Shown in pieces: positions 8,559 to 53,620 of a stretch of 64,000 nt of DNA. Position 1 is the stretch's first letter. The number at the start of each line of letters is the position of its first letter. The notes under the pieces are model-generated. The model was not told the origin of the DNA. It made no database searches and saw only the letters and a list, made by a program, of their open reading frames with translations. Position numbers and translations under genes: made by a program. Source of the DNA: Eubacteriales bacterium (GTDB lineage: Bacteria > Bacillota > Clostridia > Oscillospirales > QAKW01); contig JAZPYP010000072.1 of NCBI GenBank assembly GCA_045544255.1, positions 41,764 through 105,763 on the forward strand, given 5' to 3'.

Positions 8559-8607
8559 TTCACTCTTCACTATTCACTATTCACTATTCACTATTCACTC
8601 TTCACTA
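8559..8607 (+). repeat. 7 tandem heptads TTCACT[A/C]
   Basis: Read directly: TTCACTC TTCACTA x4 TTCACTC TTCACTA, contiguous and all direct. Confidence 0.95.
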
Positions 8608-25089: not shown

Positions 25090-25102
25090 TCTAAAATATC
25101 AA

Positions 25103-25139
25103 AAATCCCGAAATGCAACCTGCATTTCGGGATTTTTTT
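25103..25139 (+). terminator. pck terminator
   Basis: AATCCCGAAATGC-loop-GCATTTCGGGATT followed by TTTTTT. Confidence 0.85.
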
Positions 25140-25189
25140 ATCCTCTCGCCCTCAAATCATTTGGATCCTCACACTTTAATCCGCCAACC

Positions 25190-25453
25190 GCACAATTCAT
25201 TTGTGCACCTCAACCATTTCTACCTACCCGCACAAATCATTTGTACACCCCATCTCATTTCTGCGTAGCCGCACAATTCATTTGTGCACCCTAACTCATT
25301 TCTACGTAGCCGCACAAATCATTTGTACACCCTAACTCATTTCTGCGCAGCCGCACAATTCATTTGTGCACCCCATCTCATTTCTGCGCAGCCGCACAAT
25401 TCATTTGTGCGCCCTAACTCATTTCTGCGCAGCCGCACAAATGATTTGTGCGG
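25190..25453 (+). repeat. tandem array A: 8 copies of a 41-bp unit
   Basis: GCACAA starts at 25190, 25230, 25271, 25312, 25353, 25394 and 25435 (steps 40,41,41,41,41,41). Consensus GCACAATTCATTTGTGCACCCTAACTCATTTCTGCGCAGCC. Confidence 0.95.
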
Positions 25454-25509
25454 GTGGATTGATTTTTGAAGAAATTTATGTTATTCTTTAAAAAAAGGAT
25501 GTGATACAA

Positions 25510-25818
25510 ATGGATCAAGCAGTATTTGCACAGAGGTTAAAACAATTACGAGCACAAATGGGCGTCAGTCAGCATGAAATGAGCAAGAAATTAGGTCTTA
25601 CTCAAAACTACATCTTCAACATTGAATCCGGTTACGCCTATCCCTCCATGACCAATTTTTTTGCCATTTGTTCCTATTTAGACGTTACGCCGGAGGAATT
25701 TTTCTCCTTTGGAGAAAATCCCGATGACCAAGTACAGGAGCTTCTTTCCGTTACCCGCAATTTTTGCGGGGAAGACATGGCTCATCTGATTGATTACGCC
25801 ATCAAAATGAAATGGTGA
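25510..25818 (+). CDS. XRE-family helix-turn-helix protein
   Basis: FAQRLKQLRAQMGVSQHEMSKKLGLTQNYIFNIESG is a classic Cro/C1 HTH. The ATG at 25510 follows AAAGGA (GTG at 25501 also possible). Confidence 0.8.
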   Translation: MDQAVFAQRLKQLRAQMGVSQHEMSKKLGLTQNYIFNIESGYAYPSMTNFFAICSYLDVTPEEFFSFGENPDDQVQELLSVTRNFCGEDMAHLIDYAIKMKW

Positions 25819-25904
25819 AAGCTTTGCATAAACGCGTGTGCGTATTTTTAACCAAAAATAAATGAGATTTGGTTTCAAGTCAGACATTTTCGGAGAAAGA
25901 CACC

Positions 25905-26342
25905 ATGGATTATTCCGCTTTTGCAGATAAACTTACAAAATTCATTCCTCTCCCCATGACGGTTTTAGGCATCCTTTTTATTGGGTTGCTGATCTTTTTA
26001 TTCATTGCCTTGAAAATGAAATTTCTCAAGGAATCCTGGATTTATTTAGTCTGCGGTTTTATTGGGATTGTTTTGGCTTATTTCTTCACCATTTACCCCG
26101 TTCAGAAGGATATCCGGGAGAAAACCTATATCGAATATCACAGGAACTTTATTATTGACGAATATTACTTCACAAGTCGAAGCAGTTCTTCCACCATGAT
26201 GATTCGCTTTTCCCCATCCGAAAAAGCTGAAAAATTCAAAACCATTGAGGAATTTCACGAAATTACGCTGGGGAAAATTTATCAGGGAACCATCTGCTAC
26301 GGAAAACATTCGAAAATGATTATCGAAATAGAAATAAAATAA
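25905..26342 (+). CDS. hypothetical 2-TM membrane protein
   Basis: ATG at 25905. Two hydrophobic helices, then a ~80-aa soluble tail. AT-rich codon usage unlike its neighbours. Confidence 0.5.
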   Translation: MDYSAFADKLTKFIPLPMTVLGILFIGLLIFLFIALKMKFLKESWIYLVCGFIGIVLAYFFTIYPVQKDIREKTYIEYHRNFIIDEYYFTSRSSSSTMMIRFSPSEKAEKFKTIEEFHEITLGKIYQGTICYGKHSKMIIEIEIK

Positions 26343-26383
26343 AGATTTCTTTCAATCATGATATAAACTGCTTTTAGAGCTAC

Positions 26384-26415
26384 AGCCGCACTTTTTGATG
26401 CGGCTATTATTTTTG
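26384..26415 (+). terminator. terminator after XRE/membrane gene pair
   Basis: AGCCGCA-loop-TGCGGCT followed by ATTATTTTT. Confidence 0.55.
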
Positions 26416-26478
26416 CTTCAAAATCCGTTTTATCGGACTTTATCTATGATAAAATACCCCTAAGCAAAAAGGGTAGTG

Positions 26479-30239: not shown

Positions 30240-30275
30240 AAACCGCCGATGGAACATCGGCGGTTTGCTTTTTTA
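30240..30275 (+). terminator. pgsA terminator
   Basis: AAACCGCCGATG-loop-CATCGGCGGTTT followed by GCTTTTTT. Confidence 0.85.
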
Positions 30276-30300
30276 TTAAATCCCATCTTTTTACCTTCCC

Positions 30301-30895
30301 GCACAATTCATTTGTGCACCCTAACTCATTTCTTTGCCGCCACACAATTCATTTGTACACCCTAACTCATTTCTGCGTAGCCGCATAATTCATTTGTACA
30401 CCCTAACCCATTTCTGCGTAGCTGCACAATTCATTTGTGCACCCCAACCCATTTCTGCGCAGCCGCACAAATCATTTGTACACCCCCAACCCATTTCTGC
30501 GCAGCTGCACAATTCATTTGTACATCCTAACCCATTTCTGCGCAGCCGCACAATTCATTTGTACTCCCTATCCCATTTCTGCGCAGCCGCACAATTCATT
30601 TGTGCACCCTAACCCATTTCTGCCCAGCTGCACAATTCATTTGTGCACCCCAACTCATTTCTTTGCCGCCGCACAATTCATTTGTACACCCTAACCCATT
30701 TCTGCGCAGCTGCACAATTCATTTGTACACCCTAACTCATTTCTGCGCAGCCGCACAATTCATTTGTACACCCCAACTCATTTCTGCGCAACCGCACAAT
30801 TCATTTGTGCACCCCAACTTATTTCTGCGCAGCCGCACAATTCATTTGTGCACCCCAACTCATTTCTTTGCCGCCGCACAATTCATTTGTGCACC
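30301..30895 (+). repeat. tandem array B: 15 copies of the same 41-bp unit
   Basis: Unit starts at 30301, 30342, 30383, 30424, 30465, 30507, 30548, 30589, 30630, 30671, 30712, 30753, 30794, 30835 and 30876 (all steps 41 except one of 42). Same orientation as array A. Confidence 0.95.
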
Positions 30896-30951
30896 TGATT
30901 TCTTTGCAATGATCAACCCAAATCATTTGGGTTTTGGGGTGATTGACATTT

Positions 30952-30980
30952 TTTGAGGAGAGGTGTATACTTTTTGAGAA
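30952..30980 (+). promoter_or_regulatory. promoter of riboswitch-DUF4430 operon
   Basis: TTGACA - 17 nt - TATACT. Confidence 0.6.
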
Positions 30981-30986
30981 GCGAAG

Positions 30987-31290
30987 CTATGCTTTTCTTG
31001 GCAGGGCATAAATGCCTTGCCGCAAGGAAGAGGGGTGAGATTCCCCCGCGAACTCGTCGCCGTGATAGGTGAGGGTTCTCCCTGAAATGCCACTGAGGAA
31101 GCGATTCCTTGGGAAGGCGGGAGAAACCGCAATCAGCCTTCAGCCGGAATATTTGGAGCATAGAAAAATCCATAAGCTTGCTACGAGTGCTTAGCCTTTC
31201 AATAAGGGCTCTGCTGCCGGCAGAGGGCAGCGAAGGCTTTATGGGAAGCAGAAAAGGGCTTTTTGGATTTCCCGCTTTAGAAAATTTAAA
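30987..31290 (+). promoter_or_regulatory. cobalamin (B12) riboswitch leader
   Basis: Conserved cobalamin-riboswitch blocks in the expected order: GGGGTGAGATTCC, GCCACTG (31098..31104), GGGAAGGC (31120..31127) and a B12-box-like CAGCCGGAATATTTGG. The downstream genes are types commonly under B12 riboswitches. Confidence 0.65.
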
Positions 31291-31302: not shown

Positions 31303-31695
31303 ATGAGCAAAAAGCAAAAGCTGCTAACGATCGTTGGCGGCGTCATTCTGATTGCCCTTGCGGCAGTTGCTTTGCTCCTTTGGAATGGTTTCTCTGCCAA
31401 GCCGGAAGAAGGAAATAAGCAAATTACATTTGAACTGATCGATAAAGACGGCAGTTCTAAGGAATTCAGCATCAAAACCGATGCCGAATATTTGGCAGAT
31501 GCCTTGGTAGAGGAAAAGCTGATCACCTACGATAAAGGCGGCCTTTATACCACCATCAACGGCATCACCTGCGATTGGGAAAAAGACCAAGCCTATTGGG
31601 CCATTTCCATCGACGGGGAATATGCGATGGTTGGCATGAATGAGATTCCCATTAAAGATGGGGGACATTATGAAGCAACCTATACAAAAGGGTAA
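31303..31695 (+). CDS. DUF4430 (transcobalamin-like) membrane-anchored binding protein
   Basis: 130 aa with an N-terminal anchor and a DUF4430-like core (YWAISIDGEYAMVGMNEIPIKDGGHY). Confidence 0.6.
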   Translation: MSKKQKLLTIVGGVILIALAAVALLLWNGFSAKPEEGNKQITFELIDKDGSSKEFSIKTDAEYLADALVEEKLITYDKGGLYTTINGITCDWEKDQAYWAISIDGEYAMVGMNEIPIKDGGHYEATYTKG

Positions 31696-32176
31696 GGCCC
31701 TGCAGGATCTGACCGCTCTGGCGGTATTTGCGGCGCTATTGATCGCGGTGCAGGTGGGGCTTTCTTTTCTGCCAAATATAGAGCTGGTTACACTATTGAT
31801 TATTTTAATGACCAAGCGCTTTGGCTGGAAGAGCATGCTCTCTGTTTGGGTATTTGTTTTGGTGGAAGGGCTGATCTACGGAGTGCACATTTGGTGGATC
31901 AATTATCTTTATATCTGGCCCCTTTTGGTGATTTCAGTTTTGCTTTTCAAAAAGCTTGATCATCCCCTGCCCTTTGCAATTCTGGCGGGAGGCTATGGGC
32001 TGCTCTTCGGCACCCTTTGCTCCATTCCCTATTTTTTAACCGGCGGCCTTGGGGCAGGCTTTGGCTATATAATCAGCGGCATTCCCTTTGATCTGATCCA
32101 TTGCATCAGCAACTTTTTATTGGTGCTGCTTCTTTATAAGCCTCTGACCTTTACCTTAAATAAGATTCTGCATTAA
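31670..32176 (+). CDS. putative ECF-transporter S component (possible cobalamin-specific, CbrT-like)
   Basis: ~168 aa with 5-6 TM helices. ATG at 31670 after a GGGGGA SD, overlapping the DUF4430 end. Sits behind a B12 riboswitch. Confidence 0.45.
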   Translation: MKQPIQKGKALQDLTALAVFAALLIAVQVGLSFLPNIELVTLLIILMTKRFGWKSMLSVWVFVLVEGLIYGVHIWWINYLYIWPLLVISVLLFKKLDHPLPFAILAGGYGLLFGTLCSIPYFLTGGLGAGFGYIISGIPFDLIHCISNFLLVLLLYKPLTFTLNKILH

Positions 32177-34276: not shown

Positions 34277-36766
34277 TTATTCCTCAGCGGCAGTTTCTTC
34301 GGGTTCTGGCTCTTCTTCCTCTCTTGCGGCCAGCGCAATATCGATCACCTGCACCCCTTCTCCCATTCTTACCACGCGAACCCCTTGAGTGGAGCGGCCG
34401 AGAGTGGGAATTTCTTCGGTATGAGTGCGTATGATAATGCCGCCGGAGCTGATGGCCAGAAGGTCCTCGCCATCCTCAACCATCTTGATGGCTGCGATCT
34501 TGCCGGTCTTTTCGGTAACATTATAGTTGGTAATTCCCTTACCACCGCGGGTTTGCAGGCGATATTCTTCAAATTCTGTGCGCTTACCATAGCCGTTTTC
34601 GGTGATGGAAAGCAGATTTTTGCCCTCAACGGGAATTGCCATACCAATCAGATAATCTCCATCTTTCAGGCGAATGCCCCGCACACCCTTGGTGGCGCGG
34701 CCCATGCTCCGCACATCCTCCTCCGCAAAGCGGATGGCCTTACCCTCATGGGAGGCGAGCATAACCATATCCTCGCCGCTTGTACGCATTACTTCGATCA
34801 GATCATCATCCTCTTCCAATACAATAGCGATCACACCGCTCTTGCGGATATTGCTGTATTCAGAAAGGGGCGTCTTTTTCACAGTACCGTTGCGGGTGGC
34901 CATGATCAGATTGCCGCCTTGCTCGAAGCTTTCGATGCGGATCATGGCATTGACCTTCTCATCGCTCTCGATGGGCAGAAGATTAACCACATTAGTACCC
35001 TTGGCAACCCTGCTGCTTTCCGGCACTTCATAGCCCTTCAGGCGATAGACCCGCCCTCTGGTTGTAAAGAACAGAATGGTATCATGGGTAGAGGCAGAGA
35101 AGAGGCTCTTGACCACATCTTCTTCCTTGGTCTTCATACCGGTGATGCCTCTGCCGCCCCGATGCTGGGCTTTATAGGTATCCACTGTCTGCCGCTTGAT
35201 ATAGCCGGCTTCGGTAAGAGTAAAGATGCAATCTTCAACGGGGATCAGGTCCTCATCCTCCAGCCCGATCTCGCCATGGCCGATCTCGGTGCGGCGGTCA
35301 TCGCCGAATTTGCGGGCCACTTCCGAAAGATCGGTTTTCAAAATATCCACAACCCGATAATCGTTTGCAAGGATATCCTTCAGATCGGCAATTTTAGCGG
35401 AGATTTCTTTGTATTCATTCTCCAGCTTTTCCCGCTCCAGACCGGAAAGCTGACCAAGCTTCATATCAACGATCGCCTGCGCCTGAATTTCATCCAATTC
35501 AAACCGCGCCATTAATTTTTCTTTGGCATCGGCAATATGCTTACTGCCGCGGATAATGGCAATCACTTCATCGATATGATCGATCGCCTTCAGAAGACCT
35601 TCCAAAATATGGGCTCTGGCTTCCGCCTTTTTGATCTCAAAAGCGGTGCGGCGGCGGATAACCTCCTTTTGGTGGAGAAGATATTGCTCCAACATCTGCT
35701 TTAAGGAGAGAACCTTGGGCTCGCCGTTGACCAGCGCCAGCATGATTACCGAGCAGGTAACCTGCATATCGGTATATTTATAAAGCTGATTTAAGATCAC
35801 TTGGGGATTGGCCTCTTTTTTCAGCTCAACCACAAAGCGAAGGCCATCCTTATCGGTTTCATCCCGAATATCGGAGATGCCCTCGATGCGGCCGGTTTTT
35901 ACTTCATCGGCGATCTTTTCAATCAAAGCAGCCTTGCGCACCATATAGGGAATTTCATTGACTACGATTTTATAGCGGCCATCTCTCCATTCCTCGATCT
36001 CGGCTCTGGCCCGCACATAGATCTTGCCGCGGCCGGTGCGATAGGCATTGCGGATCCCGCTTCTGCCCATAATGATCGCGCCGGTGGGAAAATCAGGGCC
36101 TTTGATATATTCGCAAAGCTCATCCACATCCATTTCCGGATTATCCAGAAGAGCAACCGCGCCATCTACCACTTCTCTGAGGTTATGGGGCGGAATATCG
36201 GTAGCCATACCAACGGCAATACCGGAGGAGCCATTTACCAGAAGATTGGGGTATCTGGCGGGGAGAACCCGCGGCTCTTTTCTTGTTTCATCAAAGTTGG
36301 GATCCCAATCGATGGTATCTTTTTCAATATCCTTGAGCATCTCATTAGAGATCTTGCTCATTCTTGCCTCGGTATAACGATAAGCCGCGGCAGGATCACC
36401 GTCGATAGAACCAAAGTTGCCATGGCCATCTACCAAAGGATAGCGCAGGGAGAAGGGCTGAGCCAAGCGCACCAGCGCATCATAAACAGAGGCATCGCCA
36501 TGGGGATGATAGCGGCCCAATACATCGCCCACGCAGGTGGCCGATTTTCTGAAGGGCTTATCGCTGGTCAGATTGTCTTCATACATAGCATAAAGAATCC
36601 GGCGGTGCACAGGCTTCAGGCCATCGCGCACATCAGGAAGAGCGCGGCCGACGATAACCGACATGGCATAGTCGATATAGGAGGTTTTCATCTCCTTTTC
36701 CAGATCGACGGGGACAATATATTGATTTTCATAACTGCTGGTATCAAATTGATCATATTTAGCCAT
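34277..36766 (-). CDS. gyrA: DNA gyrase subunit A
   Basis: 829 aa. [16 protein letters not shown], and the active-site region AAYRYTE. Confidence 0.95.
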
Positions 36767-36783
36767 TTTTCACGCACCTCCTT

Positions 36784-38724
36784 TTATACATCAAGATTCA
36801 TCACATACTTGGCATTTTCTTCGATAAATGCCTTTCTGGGCTCTACCTTTTCGCCCATCAAAATAGAAAATGTCTGATCGGCGGCGATGGCATCGCCCAA
36901 TGTGAATTGCTTTAAGGTTCGGGTTTCGGGATCCATGGTGGTGGCCCAAAGCTCTTTGGCATCCATCTCACCAAGACCCTTATTGCGGCTGATCTCTACC
37001 TTGCCCTTGCCATCCTCGCCGCGGAGCTCTGCAGAGATTTTATCTCTTTCTTCATCGGAATAGGCATAGCGGGTTTCCTTGCCCTTCACTAATTTATAAA
37101 GGGGAGGCACCGCGGTATAAACATAGCCGCCTTCAATGAGGGGGCGCATAAAGCGGAAGAAGAAGGTCAGCAGAAGGGTGCGGATATGCGCACCATCCAC
37201 GTCCGCATCCGCCATGATAATAACCTTACCATAGCGCAGCTTTTCAATATCGAAATCGGCGCCGATATTAGTGCCCAGCGCGGCGATCACCGGCTGAAGC
37301 TTATCGTTATTATAAACCTTATCCAAGCGGGATTTTTCAACATTGAGCATCTTGCCCCAAAGGGAAAGGATCGCTTGGAAGCGGCGATCGCGGCCATCCT
37401 TGGCGGAGCCGCCTGCCGAATCTCCCTCTACGATATAGATTTCGCTATACTTGGTATCCTTGCTCTGGCAATCGGCCAGCTTACCGGGGAGGGAAAGAGA
37501 GGTGGAAAGGGCGCTCTTTCTTGCGCTCTCTCTTGCCTTTCTTGCCGCCTCTCTTGCCTGAGAGGCCGAGACTGCCTTGCTGATAATGGTTTTGGCAACC
37601 TTGGGATTTTCTTCAAAAAATTCGGTAAGCTTCTCGGTGATGATGGAGCTGACTAAGCCCCGCACCTCACTATTGCCCAGCTTGGTTTTGGTCTGGCCCT
37701 CAAATTGAGCCTCTTCCACCTTCACACTGATGATCACCGTTAAGCCTTCCCGCACATCCTCGCTGGAAAGGTTGGCATCCTTTTCCTTAAGATAATTATT
37801 TTTGCGGGCATAGGAATTGATCACATTGGTCATCGCCGCCTTAAAGCCGGTCTCATGGGTACCGCCTTCGGTGGTATTGATATCATTAGCAAAGGAGATG
37901 AGGGTTTCATCATATTTGGTGGTATATTGCATGGCGATCTCCGCCATGGAAGTGCCCTTCATCCCGCTTACATAGATGACCTCTTCATGGATCGGCTCCT
38001 TGCTCTTATTGAGATAAGTAACAAACTCGCGGATACCGCCCTCATAGCAGAGGTTCTTGCTCTTTTTATTCTCTTCATCTCGCAGATCTTCAAAAACAAT
38101 CCGAAGGCCTGCATTGAGAAACGCCTGCTCCCGCAGCCGCTTTAAGAGCACATCATATTCATATTCCAACGTTTCAAAAATCTGATCATCCGCCAAAAAG
38201 CGCACTTTGGTGCCGGTCTTTTCGGTTTCGCCTGTGATCTTCAATGAGCCGGTGGAATGGCCCCGCTCATAGCGCTGGGAATGGATCTTGCCATCATGGT
38301 GAACCTCTACCTCTAACCATTCGGAAAGGGCATTAACAACCGATGCGCCAACACCATGCAAGCCGCCGGAAACCTTATATCCGCCGCCGCCGAATTTACC
38401 GCCGGCATGGAGAATGGTAAAGACCACCTCAACAGTCGGAATTCCCATCTTGGGATGAATGCCCACAGGGATACCGCGGCCATTATCCTCCACTTCGATG
38501 ATATTGCCCGGCAAAATGCGCACACTGATGGTATCGCAATAGCCGGCCAGCGCCTCATCGATGGAGTTATCCACGATTTCATATACCAGATGATGAAGAC
38601 CGCGAATAGAAGTGGACCCGATATACATACCTGGGCGCTTTCTTACTGCCTCCAGCCCTTCCAATACCTGAATGGAAGATTCATCGTATTGGTTGGTTAC
38701 TTTTTGTTGATCCATTTTTTTCAA
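36784..38724 (-). CDS. gyrB: DNA gyrase subunit B
   Basis: 646 aa with GHKL ATPase, [21 protein letters not shown] and [11 protein letters not shown]-type motifs. Confidence 0.95.
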
Positions 38725-38760
38725 CTTTCCTTTCGTTACTTTCTTAATCAGAAAATGTTT

Positions 38761-39030
38761 TTATATATAAGAAATTTTTTTAATATAGTTGCAGCGTTTG
38801 AGCAAGGTTTGGGCGGAGATTTGGGAGATATAGACCACCACATCCATTCCCCAGTTGCATACGATGAAGGATTTTGGAATATCGGTGGCCACATTGATCA
38901 GCTTAAATTCCTTTTCCTTGGCCTTTAAAAAATCTCTTGTTCGCTTTGATACAGTGGCTTTATCCATATCAAAGATGCCGATAATATGCTCCTTTTTAAT
39001 GAGCACATCCTGCCCCAGATGGAGATACAC
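38761..39030 (-). CDS. DUF370 (RemB/YaaB-like) small protein
   Basis: GTG at 39030 gives VYLHLGQDVLIKKEHIIGIFDMD...YISQISAQTLLKR, a DUF370 pattern. Conserved position between recF and gyrB. The track start at 39186 overlaps recF. Confidence 0.6.
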   Translation of the reverse strand: MYLHLGQDVLIKKEHIIGIFDMDKATVSKRTRDFLKAKEKEFKLINVATDIPKSFIVCNWGMDVVVYISQISAQTLLKRCNYIKKISYI

Positions 39031-40129
39031 GCTCCCTTGCCACCTTTCCTTCTTTAATAAAAAATACTTTATCGCCTTTTTTACGGATCTTTCCAAGCTC
39101 GCAGGTGGAAAGCACTGTTTGATGCCCTTCCATGCGGGAAAAGATGAATTTTTGGCGATTGGCATCCAGTTCCGATAAAATATCATCCAGCAATAATACA
39201 GGGAAATGGCCGCACCTTTTTTTCACAACTTCGGCTTCTGCCAATTTCATTGCCAGAACCGCCGAGCGGATCTGCCCTTGAGAGCCGAAAAATTTCATGC
39301 TCTTTCCGGCAAGAAGGATCAAAATATCATCTTTATGCACCCCGCAAAGGGTTTGCCCCATGGCAAGATCCTGCTCCTGCATCCGCTCCAAGCGGGATAA
39401 AAATAATTCTTTATATTCCTGCTCGCTATGAGCATCTTTTGAAAATTGGTTCAGATAAATGAGCTTTAATTTTTCTGCGCCCTTCGAGATCTCGCCATAA
39501 AATTCCTTGGCATATTGATCCAGCTCCAAAAGATAATCCTGCCGCGCCTTTGCAATACAGGCCCCTGCTTCGGCAAGCTTTTCATTCCAGATAGAAAGCA
39601 TTTCCGCCAAGGAAGGGTTTTCTTTGCATTGGTTTAAAAGGGCATTTCGGTTTTTAATGATCTTTTGGTAATTTAAAAGCTGATCGGTATAATGAAGATC
39701 CAAGGAGCAAAGGGCCATATCCAAAAAATTGCGGCGCTTATTGGGCCCTTCTTTAATCAGATTAAGATGATCGGGCGTAAAGATCACCGATTGAAAATTA
39801 CCGAGCAGATCTCGGAGCCTTCCAACCACAAGCCCATTATAGCGGTATTCTTTAGGCCGATCTTTCTTAAAGAGGATCTGCAGCTGCTCCGCGCTGCCTT
39901 CCACTTCAAAATCCAATGTAATCGCCGCTTCTTCTTTTCCAAAGCGGATCAACTGCTCCTCTCTTTTTACCCGATAGCTTTTCAGGCAGGTGCAAAAATA
40001 GATGGCTTCGATGCAGTTTGTTTTCCCTTGGGCATTATTGCCCGCAAGAATATTGATTCCATCGTTAAAAGAAAGAGTGGTATCTTCAAAATTCCGAAAA
40101 TTTTCAAGCCTTAATGCTTTGATCTTCAT
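38996..40129 (-). CDS. recF: DNA replication/repair protein RecF
   Basis: MKIKALRLENFRNF, Walker A GNNAQGKTN, signature LLLDDILSELD. Confidence 0.9.
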   Translation of the reverse strand: MKIKALRLENFRNFEDTTLSFNDGINILAGNNAQGKTNCIEAIYFCTCLKSYRVKREEQLIRFGKEEAAITLDFEVEGSAEQLQILFKKDRPKEYRYNGLVVGRLRDLLGNFQSVIFTPDHLNLIKEGPNKRRNFLDMALCSLDLHYTDQLLNYQKIIKNRNALLNQCKENPSLAEMLSIWNEKLAEAGACIAKARQDYLLELDQYAKEFYGEISKGAEKLKLIYLNQFSKDAHSEQEYKELFLSRLERMQEQDLAMGQTLCGVHKDDILILLAGKSMKFFGSQGQIRSAVLAMKLAEAEVVKKRCGHFPVLLLDDILSELDANRQKFIFSRMEGHQTVLSTCELGKIRKKGDKVFFIKEGKVARERVSPSGAGCAH

Positions 40130-40335
40130 CTTACAATTTTAAATTCTTCATTCATAATCGAAAAAGAATCCTCTTCATAAAGCTTTTTGCCCTTCATCAG
40201 GCATACCTCACCATTGACCAAAACCTGCCCATCTAAAATCAGCAGCTTGGCATGGCCGCCGGTTTCTGCGATACCGCAAAGCTTCAAAGCATCGCAAAGG
40301 CGGATATATTCATCTTTAATTAAAAGCTTATTCAT
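40126..40335 (-). CDS. S4-domain RNA-binding protein (YaaA/RlbA-like)
   Basis: 69 aa. Conserved slot between dnaN and recF. S4-like GGHAKLLILDGQVLVNGE. Confidence 0.7.
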   Translation of the reverse strand: MNKLLIKDEYIRLCDALKLCGIAETGGHAKLLILDGQVLVNGEVCLMKGKKLYEEDSFSIMNEEFKIVR

Positions 40336-40338
40336 CTC

Positions 40339-41460
40339 TTATTCCTTCATTCGAAGAGGCAATACCAAGAAAAGATAATCCTCTTTATCCATAGGGCGCA
40401 AAATAATGGGCGCCAGATTGCTCTGCAGCTCGATCATGATCTCTTCATCATCGCAGGCGGCAAGAGCGGCCAGCATATATTTATAGTTGAAGCCGATCAC
40501 CATCTTTTCGGAAAATTCTTCGCATTCAATTGAATCTTCAAATTTACCGATATTGGAAGCGGTGGAAATATCAATATGATCAAAATCAAAGCTGCAGCGA
40601 ATGGGGCTGATAATGGAAGCATTGGCCATCAGGGAAGCCCGCTCGATCACCTTTTCAAAATCCCGCACATTGGTTTTAACGCGGAATTTATAATTTTTGG
40701 GGATCGCAGCCTTATAATCCAAAAATTCCCCTTCCAGCAAGCGGGAAACAAGCTGCACACTATCGTATTTAAAGGAAACAAAGCTTCCGCTATGGCGGAT
40801 CTCAATGGTCTCCTCTTCGCTATCGGGAAGGATCTTTAAAAGCTCATTCAGCGCGCGGGAAGGAATCACCACTTTAGAGAAATTTCCCTGCACCTGCTCA
40901 AAGGGTACCTTGCGGATCGCCAAGCGGAAATTATCCACTGCTACTGCAGAAATATTTCCCTCTTCCTTATTCAGCTCGAAAAGTACACCGGTTAAGATCG
41001 GCTTCAGATCGGTGATGGAAACGGCAAAAATAGTCTGCCGCACCATAGTTTTGAAATTGGAATAGGTCAGCACAATGCCATCCTCGCTGAGCACTCCGGG
41101 AAGCTCCGGAAAATTCTCATCGCTCATGCCGGTAATGGTAAAGTTGGAATTACCGCCGTTGATATGGGTCAGATAAGTTCTGTTATCTGCCTCAACAGTA
41201 ACGGTGCAGGAGGGCAATTTCCGAATGATATCGCCAAAGATGCGGGAATTTAAGATAATAACGCCCCGCTCGGTATCCTCGGCATCAATTTCATAAGAGA
41301 TCGAAATATTTTGGTCATAGGCGCTGAGCAAAACCTTGCCGCTATCGGAGATTTCAATTAAGATGCCTTCCAATGCGGGAATGGTGGATTTAGCGCTTGC
41401 TGCTTTGGATACAATATTGATGGCTTCATTGAGAACAGAACGGTCACAAGAAAATTTCAT
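40339..41460 (-). CDS. dnaN: DNA polymerase III beta sliding clamp
   Basis: 373 aa, three-domain beta-clamp pattern, immediately downstream of dnaA. Confidence 0.9.
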   Translation of the reverse strand: MKFSCDRSVLNEAINIVSKAASAKSTIPALEGILIEISDSGKVLLSAYDQNISISYEIDAEDTERGVIILNSRIFGDIIRKLPSCTVTVEADNRTYLTHINGGNSNFTITGMSDENFPELPGVLSEDGIVLTYSNFKTMVRQTIFAVSITDLKPILTGVLFELNKEEGNISAVAVDNFRLAIRKVPFEQVQGNFSKVVIPSRALNELLKILPDSEEETIEIRHSGSFVSFKYDSVQLVSRLLEGEFLDYKAAIPKNYKFRVKTNVRDFEKVIERASLMANASIISPIRCSFDFDHIDISTASNIGKFEDSIECEEFSEKMVIGFNYKYMLAALAACDDEEIMIELQSNLAPIILRPMDKEDYLFLVLPLRMKE

Positions 41461-41681
41461 AGCAGATCAGTCCTTTCTTTTCTTTCTTTGATGAAGTAGA
41501 TGTTGTTGGTCTGTGTAAAACAAGGAAAACTTCAGTTTTGCCCATGGGGGCGCTGAAATTGCCTTGTTAAATCGCTGTTGATTTGCAAAATAATTTTAAA
41601 AGGGATTGAACATTGTTATGTAAACAAATGTCCCCCTTGTTAAAACTGTTGAAAAAAATCTGTTAAATTCTGAAAAAACTG

Positions 41682-43046
41682 TTAATAGGATTTTTTGATA
41701 TTTTCAGTCAGCTCCGCAACAATTTTGGTAATATTGGGATCCTGCTTAATGGCATCTTCCAGCTGGCGGATATTATAAAGAACAGTGGTATGATTTTTTC
41801 CGCCCATTTCCTTGCCGATCTCCGGCAAAGAAAGATCGGTATTTTCGCGGATCATATACATAGCCATTCTTCTTGCCGGCATAATATCGCCGCTTCTCTT
41901 TTCCCCTTTGATCTGCTCGGGGGTAACATTATAATAGCGGCAAACATGGTCGATGATGGAGGCGGGAGTAACAGCATTTTTGGTATGATCCCAAACCACG
42001 GCTTCCATTGCGGTTTTGGCAAGGGCGATGGAAGGAGTTTGGCCCCAAAGGGAATTATAAGCTTTAAGCTTTTTAATGGTGCCCTCCAGCTCCCGAATAT
42101 TGGTTTTGATTTTTGAAGCGATCAGCTCGGTAACCTCATCGGAGATATTCAGGTTATAAAGCTTGGCCTTTCTTTTAATGATCGCCACTCTGGTTTCGTA
42201 TTCAGGGGGCTGCACATCTGCGATCAAGCCCATAGAAAAGCGGGATTGAAGCCGCTCTTCCAAAGTAACCAGCTCTTTGGGAGGCCGGTCGGAGGTTAAA
42301 ATAATCTGCTTCCCTGCTTCATAGAGGGCATCAAAGGTATGAAAAAGCTCCTCCTGAATGGCATTTTTACCGCTGATGAACTGCACATCGTCCATCAGCA
42401 GCATATCGGCCATGCGGTATTTATTTTTAAATTGCCGCTGGGCATTATGCTGAATGGCATCGATCAGCTCGCTGGTAAATTCATCGCCCTTCACATAGAG
42501 GATCTTCATCTCCGGATGCATCTCTTTGATCTTATTGGCAATAGCATTGATCAGATGGGTTTTGCCAAGGCCGCTATGGCCATAAAGGAAGAATGGATTA
42601 TAGGCCGAGGCGGGATTATTGGCAATGGCCAAGGCTGCTGCATGGGCAAATTCATTTTCCTTGCCGATAACGAAATTTTCAAAGGTCAGATTGCTTTTGG
42701 CATCAAAGGCTCTGAATTCCTGGTCTACCTGCTCCAGCATGGAGGAGGTTACCTCTTCATTCTTTTTTTGGGCCGCTTCGCGGAATCCGGGGGGCACTTC
42801 CTCTTCGGTCATCACCTTCATCTCAACATCAAAGCCGATGGAATCGGAAATAGCCTCTTCGATCTGGGTTTTATATTTTTTATCAATAATACTCTTTTGA
42901 AAAAGAGTTGACACGCAAAAATAAGCGGTATCGTTTTCCATTTTCATGGGAATCAGCAGCTTGATCCATGTTTCAAAAGAAGTGGAATTCAAATCATGCT
43001 CCAGCTTCATAAGCGCTTTATCCCAAACATCCTTAAATGATTGCAT
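41682..43046 (-). CDS. dnaA: chromosomal replication initiator DnaA
   Basis: 454 aa. Walker A GHSGLGKTHL, and a C-terminal DNA-binding helix region. Confidence 0.95.
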   Translation of the reverse strand: MQSFKDVWDKALMKLEHDLNSTSFETWIKLLIPMKMENDTAYFCVSTLFQKSIIDKKYKTQIEEAISDSIGFDVEMKVMTEEEVPPGFREAAQKKNEEVTSSMLEQVDQEFRAFDAKSNLTFENFVIGKENEFAHAAALAIANNPASAYNPFFLYGHSGLGKTHLINAIANKIKEMHPEMKILYVKGDEFTSELIDAIQHNAQRQFKNKYRMADMLLMDDVQFISGKNAIQEELFHTFDALYEAGKQIILTSDRPPKELVTLEERLQSRFSMGLIADVQPPEYETRVAIIKRKAKLYNLNISDEVTELIASKIKTNIRELEGTIKKLKAYNSLWGQTPSIALAKTAMEAVVWDHTKNAVTPASIIDHVCRYYNVTPEQIKGEKRSGDIMPARRMAMYMIRENTDLSLPEIGKEMGGKNHTTVLYNIRQLEDAIKQDPNITKIVAELTENIKKSY

Positions 43047-43200
43047 CTCTTATCCCCCTTTGTAGAAAACTTGTGCAAAACTTATAAGACAACAGTATTA
43101 CACCCTATTTTAACATAGATTTTTTTTAATTTCAATATCTATTTATATAATTATACTAATAATATAGTATCATTATTTAAATAAGGAGAGGAGGGAAAAT
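43047..43200. other. putative oriC segment with AT-rich unwinding region
   Basis: Position between divergent dnaA and the rpmH-side genes. ~80-nt very AT-rich stretch at 43107..43184. Only degenerate DnaA-box-like 9-mers (TTATCCCCC 43050..43058, TGTGCAAAA 43072..43080). Confidence 0.45.
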
Positions 43201-43204
43201 TATG

Positions 43205-43233
43205 TTGACAATATTTTTTTTTCGATATATAAT
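43205..43233 (+). promoter_or_regulatory. glyQS promoter
   Basis: TTGACA - 17 nt - TATAAT, both hexamers perfect, 33 nt before the ATG. Confidence 0.65.
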
Positions 43234-43265
43234 GAGTTTTTAGATAATAATAGGAGGGTGAACCT

Positions 43266-44648
43266 ATGAAAAATACAGAAAAAACAATGGAGCAGGTTGT
43301 AAATCTCTGCAAGAGCCGCGGCTTTGTTTATAGCGGCAGCGAAATCTACGGCGGCCTTTCCAATTCTTGGGATTATGGTCCTTTAGGGGTGGAGCTGAAG
43401 AACAATGTGAAGAAGGCTTGGTGGCAGAAATTTGTGCAGGAATCTCCCTATAATGTGGGCCTTGATTCCGCTATTATCATGAACCCCGAAACCTGGGTAA
43501 CCAGCGGCCATGTGGGCGGATTTTCCGATCCCTTGATGGATTGCAAGGAATGCCATGCCCGCCACAGAGCCGATAAGCTCATCGAGGATGATGGCGGCCA
43601 TGCCGAGGGCATGACCTTTGAGCAGATGGAAGAATATATCAGGGAAAAGGGCCTTGTTTGCCCCGATTGCGGCAAGGCAAACTTTACCGATATCCGCAAA
43701 TTTAACCTGATGTTTAAAACCTTCATCGGCGTTACGGAAGACGCTAAAAATGAGGTTTATCTGCGGCCGGAAACTGCCCAGGGCATCTTTGTAAACTATG
43801 CCAATATTCAGCGCACCACCCGCAAAAAGCTGCCCTTCGGTGTTTGCCAGATTGGTAAATCCTTCCGCAATGAGATCACTCCCGGCAACTTTGTTTTCCG
43901 CACCCGCGAATTTGAGCAGATGGAATGCGAATTCTTCTGCAAACCCGATACTGATCTGGATTGGTTCTATTATTGGAAAGATTTCTGCAAGAATTGGCTG
44001 ATCGCTCTTGGCATGAAGGAAGAAAATATGCGCCTGAGGGATCATGAGAAGGAAGAGCTTTCCTTCTATTCCAAGGCCACTACCGATATTGAATTCCTCT
44101 TCCCCTTCGGTTGGGGCGAGCTTTGGGGCATTGCCGACCGCACCAATTATGATCTTGGCCGCCATCAGGAAGCCAGCGGAAAATCCTTGGAATATTTCGA
44201 TCCCGAAACCAATGAGCGGTATATCCCTTATGTGGTGGAGCCCTCTTTGGGCGCCGATCGGGTGCTGCTTGCTTTCCTTTGCGATGCTTATGATGAGGAA
44301 GTTCTGGATGCAGAGAAGAATGATACCCGCGTTGTTTTGCGGCTGCATCCTGCGCTGGCGCCTGTGAAGGCGGCGGTTCTTCCCCTTTCCAAGAAGCTTT
44401 CCGATGCTGCAATGGAAAAGGTTTATAATGTGCTTTGCAAAGAATTCAATGTGGAATTCGATGATGCAGGCTCTATCGGTAAGCGCTATCGCCGGCAGGA
44501 TGAGATCGGCACTCCCTTCTCCATCTGCTATGATTTTGATAGCGAAGAGGATGGCTGCGTTACCATTCGTTTCAGAGATACCATGGAGCAAAAGCGGGTT
44601 AAAATCGAAGAATTGGTAGAATTTATCCGCAATAGTCTTAAATTTTAA
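43266..44648 (+). CDS. glyQS: glycine--tRNA ligase (class II, homodimeric type)
   Basis: 460 aa. N-terminus [24 protein letters not shown] and class II motifs. Confidence 0.9.
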
Positions 44649-53342: not shown

Positions 53343-53469
53343 TAAGCGGATCTTTTTGGCTCTTTTTCCTTTTTCCTCACTCGGCGTATCAATATACGCC
53401 TTCGTTCGGAGAAAAGAAAAAATAACTCAAAAATCTCTCGCTTATTATGATCGCTTAATAGTAGAAAAT

Positions 53470-53620
53470 ATAAATATAAATATTTATATAAATGCTGTAA
53501 TTACAAAAAGTTATAAATACAAATTTTTATAACTTGGATCAAATAAACCGAAATGTTATAAATATAAATTTTTATAACATCATCAGAGGGTCAAAAAGTT
53601 ATAAATATAAATATTTATAT
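53470..53620. repeat. four ~20-24-bp AT-rich palindromic elements spaced 43-45 bp
   Basis: ATAAATATAAATATTTATAT at 53470 and 53601 (identical). GTTATAAATA[C/T]AAATTTTTATAAC at 53510 and 53555. Confidence 0.85.

Follow-up and report, generated by a model that had tools for sequence, protein, structure and literature searches.

Repeated binding sites at the promoter of the binder's own gene are found in R1 parC/ParR, the pSM19035 omega sites and the P1 incC/incA iterons, where they combine autoregulation with a second role; in P1, two arrays flank the gene and one of them is a titrating control locus. By architecture, the closest analogue of the element described here is sopC, the type Ia partition site of the F plasmid, in which a 43-bp direct repeat occurs 12 times and every copy contains a 16-bp inverted repeat to which SopB binds, according to the account in PMC3177203. 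The element, array B, consists of 15 tandem copies of a 41-bp unit in a 64,000-nucleotide stretch of an Eubacteriales bacterium genome (assembly GCA_045544255.1, contig JAZPYP010000072.1, positions 41,764 to 105,763 of the forward strand); this whole stretch is referred to as the window, and coordinates are window positions unless another contig is named. A second array of the same unit, array A, stands directly upstream of a gene for a 102-aa XRE-family protein, and this gene is ~5 kb from array B. Our analysis indicates that array B is probably a tandem, helically phased array of duplex-DNA operators for this SinR-like XRE regulator (25510-25818). As read from the sequence, it would act at the DNA level, neither as RNA nor as coding sequence. 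This reading draws on the anatomy of the arrays, their linkage to the gene across lineages, the fixed operator-promoter geometry, the pattern of conservation and copy-number differences between strains.

Like sopC, array B is built from direct repeats (15 of 41 bp) with one 17-bp inverted repeat each, keeps its sites in helical phase and could support a large nucleoprotein complex. Unlike sopC, it is chromosomal, its presumed binder is a 102-aa XRE/HTH_3 protein instead of ParB, the operator keeps a fixed spacing from the binder's own promoter, and the sequences are dissimilar. The parC, omega and P1 systems use ribbon-helix-helix (RHH) proteins or Rep initiators on plasmids or phages, with direct repeats of 7-22 bp, whereas here 17-bp palindromes recur every 41 bp and no replication or partition genes are present. 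SinR and the restriction-modification controller (C) proteins share with the regulator proposed here a small XRE helix-turn-helix (HTH) domain, an oligomerization tail, palindromes or repeats upstream of their own or target promoters and cooperativity between adjacent dimers, which in our case is a prediction; those proteins, however, use 2-3 operators, in contrast to the 4-15 phased units found here. No SinI-like partner or restriction-modification genes were found near the XRE gene, and no methyltransferase or endonuclease gene is adjacent to it in the window or in lineages L019, L027, L069 and L071. DnaA-box clusters such as datA and engineered lacO/tetO arrays are likewise clusters of sites for one protein that act as a sink, but datA has few, irregular boxes and lacO/tetO arrays are artificial, unlike this natural, regular array linked to the gene of its presumed binder. 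The Mycobacterium MIRU-type minisatellites (mycobacterial interspersed repetitive units), which are variable number tandem repeat (VNTR) loci, are intergenic tandem repeats of 40-100 bp with strain-variable copy number, dispersed over many loci; the arrays described here are instead tied to a cognate regulator gene and to a conserved palindrome at a fixed promoter distance. They can be viewed as repeated operator/centromere-like site arrays whose linked gene, in uncultured Clostridia, encodes a small chromosomal XRE regulator.

The features that carry the argument are as follows.

30299-30895, plus strand: array B, 14 full 41/42-bp units and a 15th palindrome; the unit is GCACAAWTCATTTGTRC followed by linker ACCCYAACYCATTTCTGCGCAGCC (Tandem Repeats Finder (TRF), core scan, unit alignment).
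30915-30933, unstranded: terminal perfect palindrome AACCCAAATCATTTGGGTT, in phase, 40 bp past the last array B core; centre 30924, 19 bp before the -35.
30943-30971, plus strand: promoter TTGACA-17-TATACT of the B12-riboswitch operon (consensus scan, 11/12 matches).
25150-25166, unstranded: degenerate solitary palindrome CTCAAATCATTTGGA, 40 bp before the first array A core (motif scans, sequence).
25188-25451, plus strand: array A, 7 palindromic sites at a spacing of 40-41 bp, with a unit shared with array B (TRF, 6.5 copies; core scan; spacing).
25435-25451, unstranded: promoter-proximal perfect palindrome GCACAAATGATTTGTGC, the putative primary operator, 9/9 symmetric with its flanks; centre 25443, 16 bp before the -35.
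25459-25487, plus strand: putative XRE gene promoter TTGATT-17-TATTCT, with TGn before the hexamer (extended -10) (7-lineage alignment).
25510-25818, plus strand: gene for a 102-aa XRE-family HTH protein with two extra C-terminal helices in a SinR-like layout, the proposed array binder (Pfam HTH_3, 2e-15; orthologues; AlphaFold; fold matches).

The 41-bp tandem repeat is real. TRF resolved array B at 30299-30895 with a period of 41, 14.5 copies and 89% matches (score 877), and the unit consists of the 17-bp imperfect palindrome GCACAAWTCATTTGTRC and the 24-nt linker ACCCYAACYCATTTCTGCGCAGCC. A fuzzy scan for the 19-nt core GCACAATTCATTTGTGCAC identified 15 copies in array B, starting at 30301, 30342 and so on to 30876, and 7 copies in array A; the two arrays have a common 41-bp TRF consensus, in agreement with an earlier note, made by a model from the letters alone, that array B repeats the unit and orientation of array A. 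The count of 15 copies in that note also held, but its fourteen steps of 41 bp plus one of 42 bp did not: there are 14 steps, 13 of 41 bp and one of 42 bp (30465 to 30507), and the 15th unit is the palindrome half alone. Its total of 23 units for both arrays becomes 22 cores (7 + 15) together with two flanking related palindromes, of which the one downstream of the last array B unit was found where the note had placed it, at 30915-30933. The variants it listed were all seen, namely GTGCAC/GTACAC, CTAAC/CCAAC and a single AAATC (unit 5), as was the linker variant TTTCTTTGCCGCC in units 1, 9 and 14. As to the higher-order duplication that it suggested, units 9 and 14 are identical and unit 1 is off by 1 nt, but the periodicity is weak, with a mean unit difference of 3.67 at lag 5 compared with 4.0-5.75 at other lags. 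The motif CAAWTSATTTG had 29 matches in the 64-kb window compared with 0.62 expected, and none of 100 shuffles reached 29; every match lay in or beside arrays A and B, and the motif scan found no match elsewhere in the window. Three forward open reading frames (ORFs) do cross array B, and the note's view that they are by-products of the repeat holds; related arrays have units of 39-49 bp, of which only 39 is divisible by three.

Relatives of the XRE protein were collected by a protein search, which gave few close ones, and a profile search, which added more, and the DNA around them was examined. Directly upstream of the gene, a tandem array was present in every examined relative with 50% identity or more.

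L037: 86% identity to XRE; at least 5 sites upstream, proximal site GCACAATTCAATTGTGC.
L035: 84% identity; 8 sites of ACCCAAATGRTTTGGGT at 42-44 bp, the array standing after PEPCK here too.
L036: 80% identity; 4 sites of ACCCCAAWTSATTTGGGGT at 43-44 bp.
L019-L024: 70% identity; 9 or 11 sites of ACACAAATGAWTTGTGT at 43 bp.
L069: 54% identity; at least 10.7 units of 46 bp, GACCCCAAATCATTTGGGGT.
L071: 52% identity; 3.7 units of 46 bp and 4.6 units of 39 bp.
L027: 50% identity; at least 6 sites of TACCAAATCATTTGGTA at 41-42 bp.

The pairing of XRE gene and array thus recurs in at least 8 lineages of related uncultured Clostridia, and the CCCAAAT-type site of AACCCAAATCATTTGGGTT, which stands singly at the end of array B, is the site from which the arrays of L035 and L036 are built. 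Relative to recA, gene and array have been inverted as a block in the 70% species, and in L027, L069 and L071 the neighbour genes of XRE are unrelated to those in the window; the array has stayed with the XRE gene despite the inversion and the new neighbours, and therefore travels with the gene. L069 has, independently, a second array, of 10.2 units of 46 bp, ~2.8 kb downstream of its XRE gene. Pairs of the array-type palindrome were identified at ordinary intergenic sites in L027 and L005, which suggests that the regulator also has conventional targets, as for a transcription-factor motif.

The geometry of the sites was also conserved. The array period was 39-46 bp (~four helical turns) in all lineages, although the linkers were unrelated between lineages, and the promoter-adjacent site was a perfect 9/9 palindrome in every lineage. 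In an alignment of 7 lineages, 15-17 bp separate the centre of this proximal site from a conserved -35 downstream, which is accompanied by an extended -10 of the form TGnTAT..T; the corresponding promoter in the window (TTGATT-17-TATTCT) scores under the threshold of the consensus promoter scan. The last site of array A is the perfect palindrome GCACAAATGATTTGTGC. Array B repeats this plan of array and promoter, with a perfect palindrome centred 19 bp before the -35 of the riboswitch operon; the TTGACA-17-TATACT promoter reported there in the earlier note exists, at 30943-30971 and not at 30952. Two properties of a transcription-factor operator were found, a dyad-symmetric site of 14-20 bp and a conserved, fixed position relative to the promoter.

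To describe the conservation of the site we compared 63 distinct sites, which had been pre-selected for at least 6/9 symmetric positions, so that the position-by-position pattern is the informative part. The half-site CAAAT (inner CAAAT.ATTTG) was nearly invariant and the outer arms varied symmetrically. In column pair 5/17, 30 distinct sites had A-T, another 30 had C-G and 1 was unpaired, and the covariation score was 0.377 compared with 0.120 in shuffles (0/500 as high) and at most 0.13 in slid controls. Dyad symmetry extended from +/-1 to +/-9, with T/A at position +/-1 in 57/63 distinct sites. In the window arrays, variable cells amounted to 14/323 in the palindrome compared with 42/456 in the linker (Fisher p = 0.011), and when a single polymorphic position was left out the difference was stronger (p = 9e-6). 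The earlier note had proposed to look for compensatory changes in the GCACAA/TTGTGC stem as opposed to conservation of loop or linker. Within the window changes were single-sided, with 0 compensatory, and between lineages the outer arms were symmetric and the inner core was kept, but the linker was not. The asymmetric half (CAATTCATTTG vs CAAATGAATTG) has its orientation relative to the gene flipped between species 1 and species 2. An RNA fold of both strands added little beyond the palindromes themselves, and a search of the array against Rfam 15 gave no match, the cobalamin riboswitch being the only match in the window. With symmetry that reaches an unpairable centre, an invariant core and symmetric arms, the site looks more like duplex DNA bound by a dimeric protein than like the stem of an RNA or cruciform.

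We also examined the protein. The AlphaFold model of XRE (pLDDT, a per-residue confidence score, 89.7) has a five-helix XRE domain followed by C-terminal helices at residues 71-81 and 87-101. The best solved relatives of the HTH domain were the restriction-modification controller proteins C.BclI (2b5a) and C.AhdI (1y7y), and the best matches of the full-length fold were 3ivp and SinR (1b0n), which have a similar HTH-plus-helices layout. The modelled layout is that of a small dimeric or tetrameric operator-binding protein. Searches of curated families gave only generic XRE/repressor matches, under the cut-offs, in NCBIfam and PHROGs, and no ParB domain was detected, with HTH_3/XRE the only match. 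Recognition-helix changes did not follow the outer-arm changes in any clear pattern; lineages with Q33 have both CAC and CCC arms.

According to the explanation that we propose, the 41-bp unit (~four turns) would put one 17-bp palindrome (half-site NCACAAWT) on the same face of the helix in each repeat. The ancestral module would be array A, with its operator array, perfect proximal operator, promoter and XRE gene, and array B would be a younger second copy of the array before the B12-riboswitch operon promoter, in this species only. XRE dimers, or perhaps tetramers formed through the C-terminal helices, may occupy the sites cooperatively, with the proximal perfect site controlling the adjacent promoter. 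The protein-coated tract could subject the XRE promoter to autoregulation and bring the neighbouring promoter under XRE control, and the imperfect upstream sites might serve as cooperative sites or as a high-capacity sink, setting a threshold for free regulator that is tuned by gain or loss of repeats. Whether through titration, cooperative coating or looping, an effect of array B on expression is something we infer. Tandem decoy sites are described as turning graded responses sigmoidal and sharpening dose-response curves in PMC3322331, and decoy sites as titrating bacterial regulators in PMC8599769. A more speculative extension, which we regard as quite unlikely, is that the two arrays belong to an undescribed chromosomal module in which the SinR-like regulator coats both arrays, 3-5 kb apart, and forms a bridging loop or barrier near oriC around recA-recX-pgsA; repeat number would be a heritable threshold rheostat, and the module would resemble natural lacO/tetO decoys or a partition-independent sopC-like complex.

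A number of observations weigh against the operator reading. The assignment of XRE to the site is drawn from linkage and geometry. Relatives of 40-49% identity (P0007, P0030 and 31 viral-contig loci) had no arrays, and arrays are therefore not common to the whole protein family. In contrast to the proximal site, most array units are imperfect palindromes, with 6-8/9 symmetric positions. Replacement of GTGCAC by GTACAC, the change seen most often within arrays, would leave a G-U wobble in minus-strand RNA and fits an RNA stem as well as neutral drift. Paired cells made up 81% of the site alignment compared with 66% in shuffles, a percentage that is inflated because the sites were pre-filtered for symmetry. 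Array B is absent from the sister species at 70% identity, where the riboswitch promoter follows the pgsA terminator with no array in between; this makes array B a lineage-specific addition, which, being absent from that species and not adjacent to the XRE gene, may have no function of its own. The earlier note had named absence of the array from close relatives among its refuting conditions, and this holds for the sister species but not for a second strain of the same species, in which the flanking DNA is ~98% identical, array B has at least 6.6 units, array A has 10 sites, and the unit variants follow another order. Other strains carry arrays at these loci as well, and their copy number varies: array A counts 7 sites in the window compared with 10 in L025, and the sister species array has 9 or 11 sites depending on the strain, all counts coming from short-read metagenome assemblies, which are prone to repeat misassembly.

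Part of this pattern is what a neutral minisatellite would produce, in which an operator segment upstream of XRE expands and contracts by slippage or unequal recombination and was copied once to the pgsA/B12 region, with regulator binding incidental or nil and array B a VNTR-like by-product. Copy number varies among strains ~98% identical in their flanks, units are homogenized within lineages and unrelated between them, as under concerted evolution, array B is missing in the sister species, and the higher-order structure is weak. Expansion alone, however, would not predict that period and site quality are kept. Although the linker has turned over completely, arrays are still present in at least 8 lineages, with protein identities as low as 50%; the period has remained close to four helical turns as the unit sequence changed; the palindrome is significantly more conserved than the linker within arrays; and the last site is always perfect, at a fixed promoter distance. 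We consider the neutral minisatellite unlikely overall, and most plausible for array B. A role in chromosome organization, in which XRE-coated arrays near oriC act like sopC/parC in positioning, bridging, looping or as a barrier to transcription or replication and not in gene regulation, appears improbable. The architecture is nearly that of F sopC, oriC is 12 and 18 kb away from the arrays, a segment of 3-5 kb stands between two arrays both in the window and in lineage L069, and SinR-like C-terminal helices could bridge dimers. Against this, no ParA/SopA-type partner and no ParM- or TubZ-type NTPase was found among the genes of 22-32 kb (rsmA, PEPCK, XRE, membrane ORF, recA, recX, MiaB-like, pgsA, DUF4430), the protein is HTH_3 and not ParB or RHH, the modules of L027, L069 and L071 lie among metabolic genes with no origin markers in view, and the fixed operator-to-promoter spacing indicates transcriptional control.

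We give very little weight to a reading of the array as structured RNA or single-strand hairpins, produced by transcription or by extrusion as cruciforms or single-stranded DNA, in which the GCACAA/TTGTGC stems and their 5-nt loop would be functional, for example as a protein-sponge RNA. The stems covary between lineages, on either strand a four-unit stretch has a more stable fold than its shuffles (z = -4.7 and -3.7), and the GTACAC variant would retain a minus-strand G-U pair. These points are outweighed in our view by the absence of an Rfam match and by the position of the array, which in every lineage lies past a terminator and before a conserved promoter reading away from it. In addition, the minimum free energy fold forms hairpins only from perfect-stem units and not from GTACAC units, the dyad symmetry includes positions +/-1 and +/-2, where a hairpin loop would have no use for it, the inner sequence does not covary but is invariant, and the asymmetric half flips relative to the gene between species. 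Scarcely credible is an assignment to a CRISPR array (clustered regularly interspaced short palindromic repeats), a MITE or REP element (miniature inverted-repeat transposable or repetitive extragenic palindromic element), plasmid or phage iterons, or a repeat-protein gene, in spite of the regularly spaced palindromic repeats and the ORFs that cross the array. The 24-nt 'spacers', instead of being unique, are ~91% identical between units, and the neighbours checked included no cas-like gene; terminal inverted repeats and target duplications are absent, and the arrays occupy orthologous positions; no Rep gene is present, the context is one of chromosomal housekeeping genes, and array DNA is unmatched in the plasmid, phage and viral sets; and a 41-bp period is not divisible by 3, with no ribosome-binding site noted by eye before the ORFs. 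The interpretation in the earlier note was partly supported; it was mostly description and proposed tests without a mechanism, and it missed the XRE gene downstream of array A on which the operator reading depends.

A blastn search of plasmid and phage collections with array DNA gave no match, a scan of viral contigs for the core gave 0 matches, and a literature search on natural tandem operator or decoy arrays with XRE regulators, or on intergenic palindromic tandem repeats in Clostridia, found no description of the module; the array thus matches no described repeat family in Rfam, plasmid, phage or literature sources, an outcome that the earlier note had made a test of its account. An exact scan for the 19-nt core in 185,579 species genomes gave 11 single matches compared with roughly 17 estimated by chance, and only L008 and, more weakly, L005 were related. 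L008, a metagenome-assembled genome of Eubacteriales, has a related array at a contig end without a visible XRE gene. Metagenome matches to two cores 20-45 nt apart were set aside as 3 unrelated tandem repeats of eukaryotic appearance. The broader XRE family, with 6109 profile-search matches, is typical of mobile-element regulators.

The two arrays share a common type of genomic context. From the left the gene order is rsmA, PEPCK, a terminator, array A, the XRE/HTH_3 gene, a 157-aa membrane ORF and recA (Pfam, Rfam and terminator scan), continuing with recX, a MiaB-like radical-SAM gene, pgsA, a terminator, array B, the promoter, the cobalamin riboswitch, DUF4430 and a 178-aa membrane protein. 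The features bordering the arrays are listed below.

25101-25137, unstranded: bidirectional terminator hairpin after the PEPCK gene, directly upstream of array A (terminator scan; PEPCK by Pfam).
30240-30266, unstranded: bidirectional terminator hairpin after pgsA (terminator scan).
30979-31170, plus strand: cobalamin riboswitch, context rather than part of the array (Rfam RF00174, 58.9 bits).
31303-32176, plus strand: DUF4430 protein and 178-aa membrane protein, the operon downstream of array B (Pfam).

Array B is intergenic, between the pgsA terminator (30240-30266) and the B12-riboswitch operon promoter, as the earlier note had placed it. Each array stands after a terminator and before a promoter, and therefore is probably not transcribed from either flanking gene. 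Minus-strand gyrA, gyrB, recF, dnaN and dnaA occupy 34277-43270, with an AT-rich region upstream of dnaA at 43047-43265, and the cumulative GC-skew minimum lies at 40-44 kb, which placed oriC at ~41-43 kb in the window. From the dnaA-gyrA gene block and the skew minimum it follows that the arrays are chromosomal, at distances of ~12 and 18 kb from oriC. In the recA-pgsA block (26-30 kb) the GC skew is locally positive, and because transcription of the block runs towards the presumed origin, it would be head-on with replication forks.

The DUF4430 and 178-aa membrane protein pair adjoins the XRE gene in L069 too (tblastn, Rfam). A regulatory link between XRE and the B12 operon was considered on the basis of this adjacency and rejected: in L069 the riboswitch is served by a promoter of its own, located within the XRE terminator, and lacks a palindrome, so that simple synteny may account for the adjacency. 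The DUF4430 protein gave no match in an exact-protein look-up. Three other assemblies of the same species, L012 (3767-5300), L014 and L015, carry an IS3-family element (rve + HTH_Tnp_1) within the stem of the pgsA terminator, at the very place where the window has the start of array B. Contigs L013 and L025 end inside array B, and several contigs end in arrays; the arrays probably explain the breaks of short-read assemblies at these loci. Many XRE family members are known only from contigs of 0.5-2 kb, which is consistent with arrays breaking short-read assemblies. Comparison of L013 (419-814) with window 25820-26458 showed that the 157-aa membrane ORF between XRE and recA is apparently missing from L013, where no gene is called and the gap is ~245 bp shorter.

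If the operator reading is true, these loci represent a natural bacterial regulator gene with a long, phased, copy-number-variable array of its own operators, and a second array recruited to another promoter. Decoy arrays are used in synthetic biology, where they create thresholds and alter noise; to our knowledge, natural chromosomal decoy arrays tied to a specific regulator are rare. The module is compact and testable, with one 102-aa protein and one 17-bp site, and the arrays could be used as strain-typing (VNTR) markers for these organisms.

Some further repeats were recorded in the course of this analysis. In the second array of L069 (3666-4154), each 46-bp unit contains the palindrome CTACCAAATCATTTGGTAC and a second one, GCACAAAAATATTGTGC, that is decaying; this array is publicly annotated as a 204-aa gene, which is probably spurious. 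In L027 (2790-2880 and 3070-3135) and L069 (3547-3613), triplets of a GC-rich hairpin with AATTCAT after it, and their inverse, flank palindrome sites or the second array; this is a separate small repeat family with no member in the window. In L008 (227-538 and 743-831), the array has 6.3 units of 49 bp, each with GCACAATTCATTTGTGC and ACACAATTTAATTGTAC spaced 21 and 28 bp, and ends in CCCAATTCATTTGGGG; a glycine riboswitch lies ~200 bp away and reads away from the array. Short runs of very similar palindromes (GTGCACAAATCATTTGTGCAC...) occur in two metagenome-assembled genomes, L006 (2819-2860, Tannerella) and L007 (300-400, an Acidobacteriota bacterium), and may be convergent or due to chance. 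Within the window, seven tandem TTCACTA copies directly follow a terminator hairpin at 8559-8607, and four AT-rich palindromes, TTATAAATATAAATWTTTATAA, stand ~43 bp apart at 53469-53619 between mnmE and mnmG, ~10 kb to the right of dnaA, where they form another phased site array.

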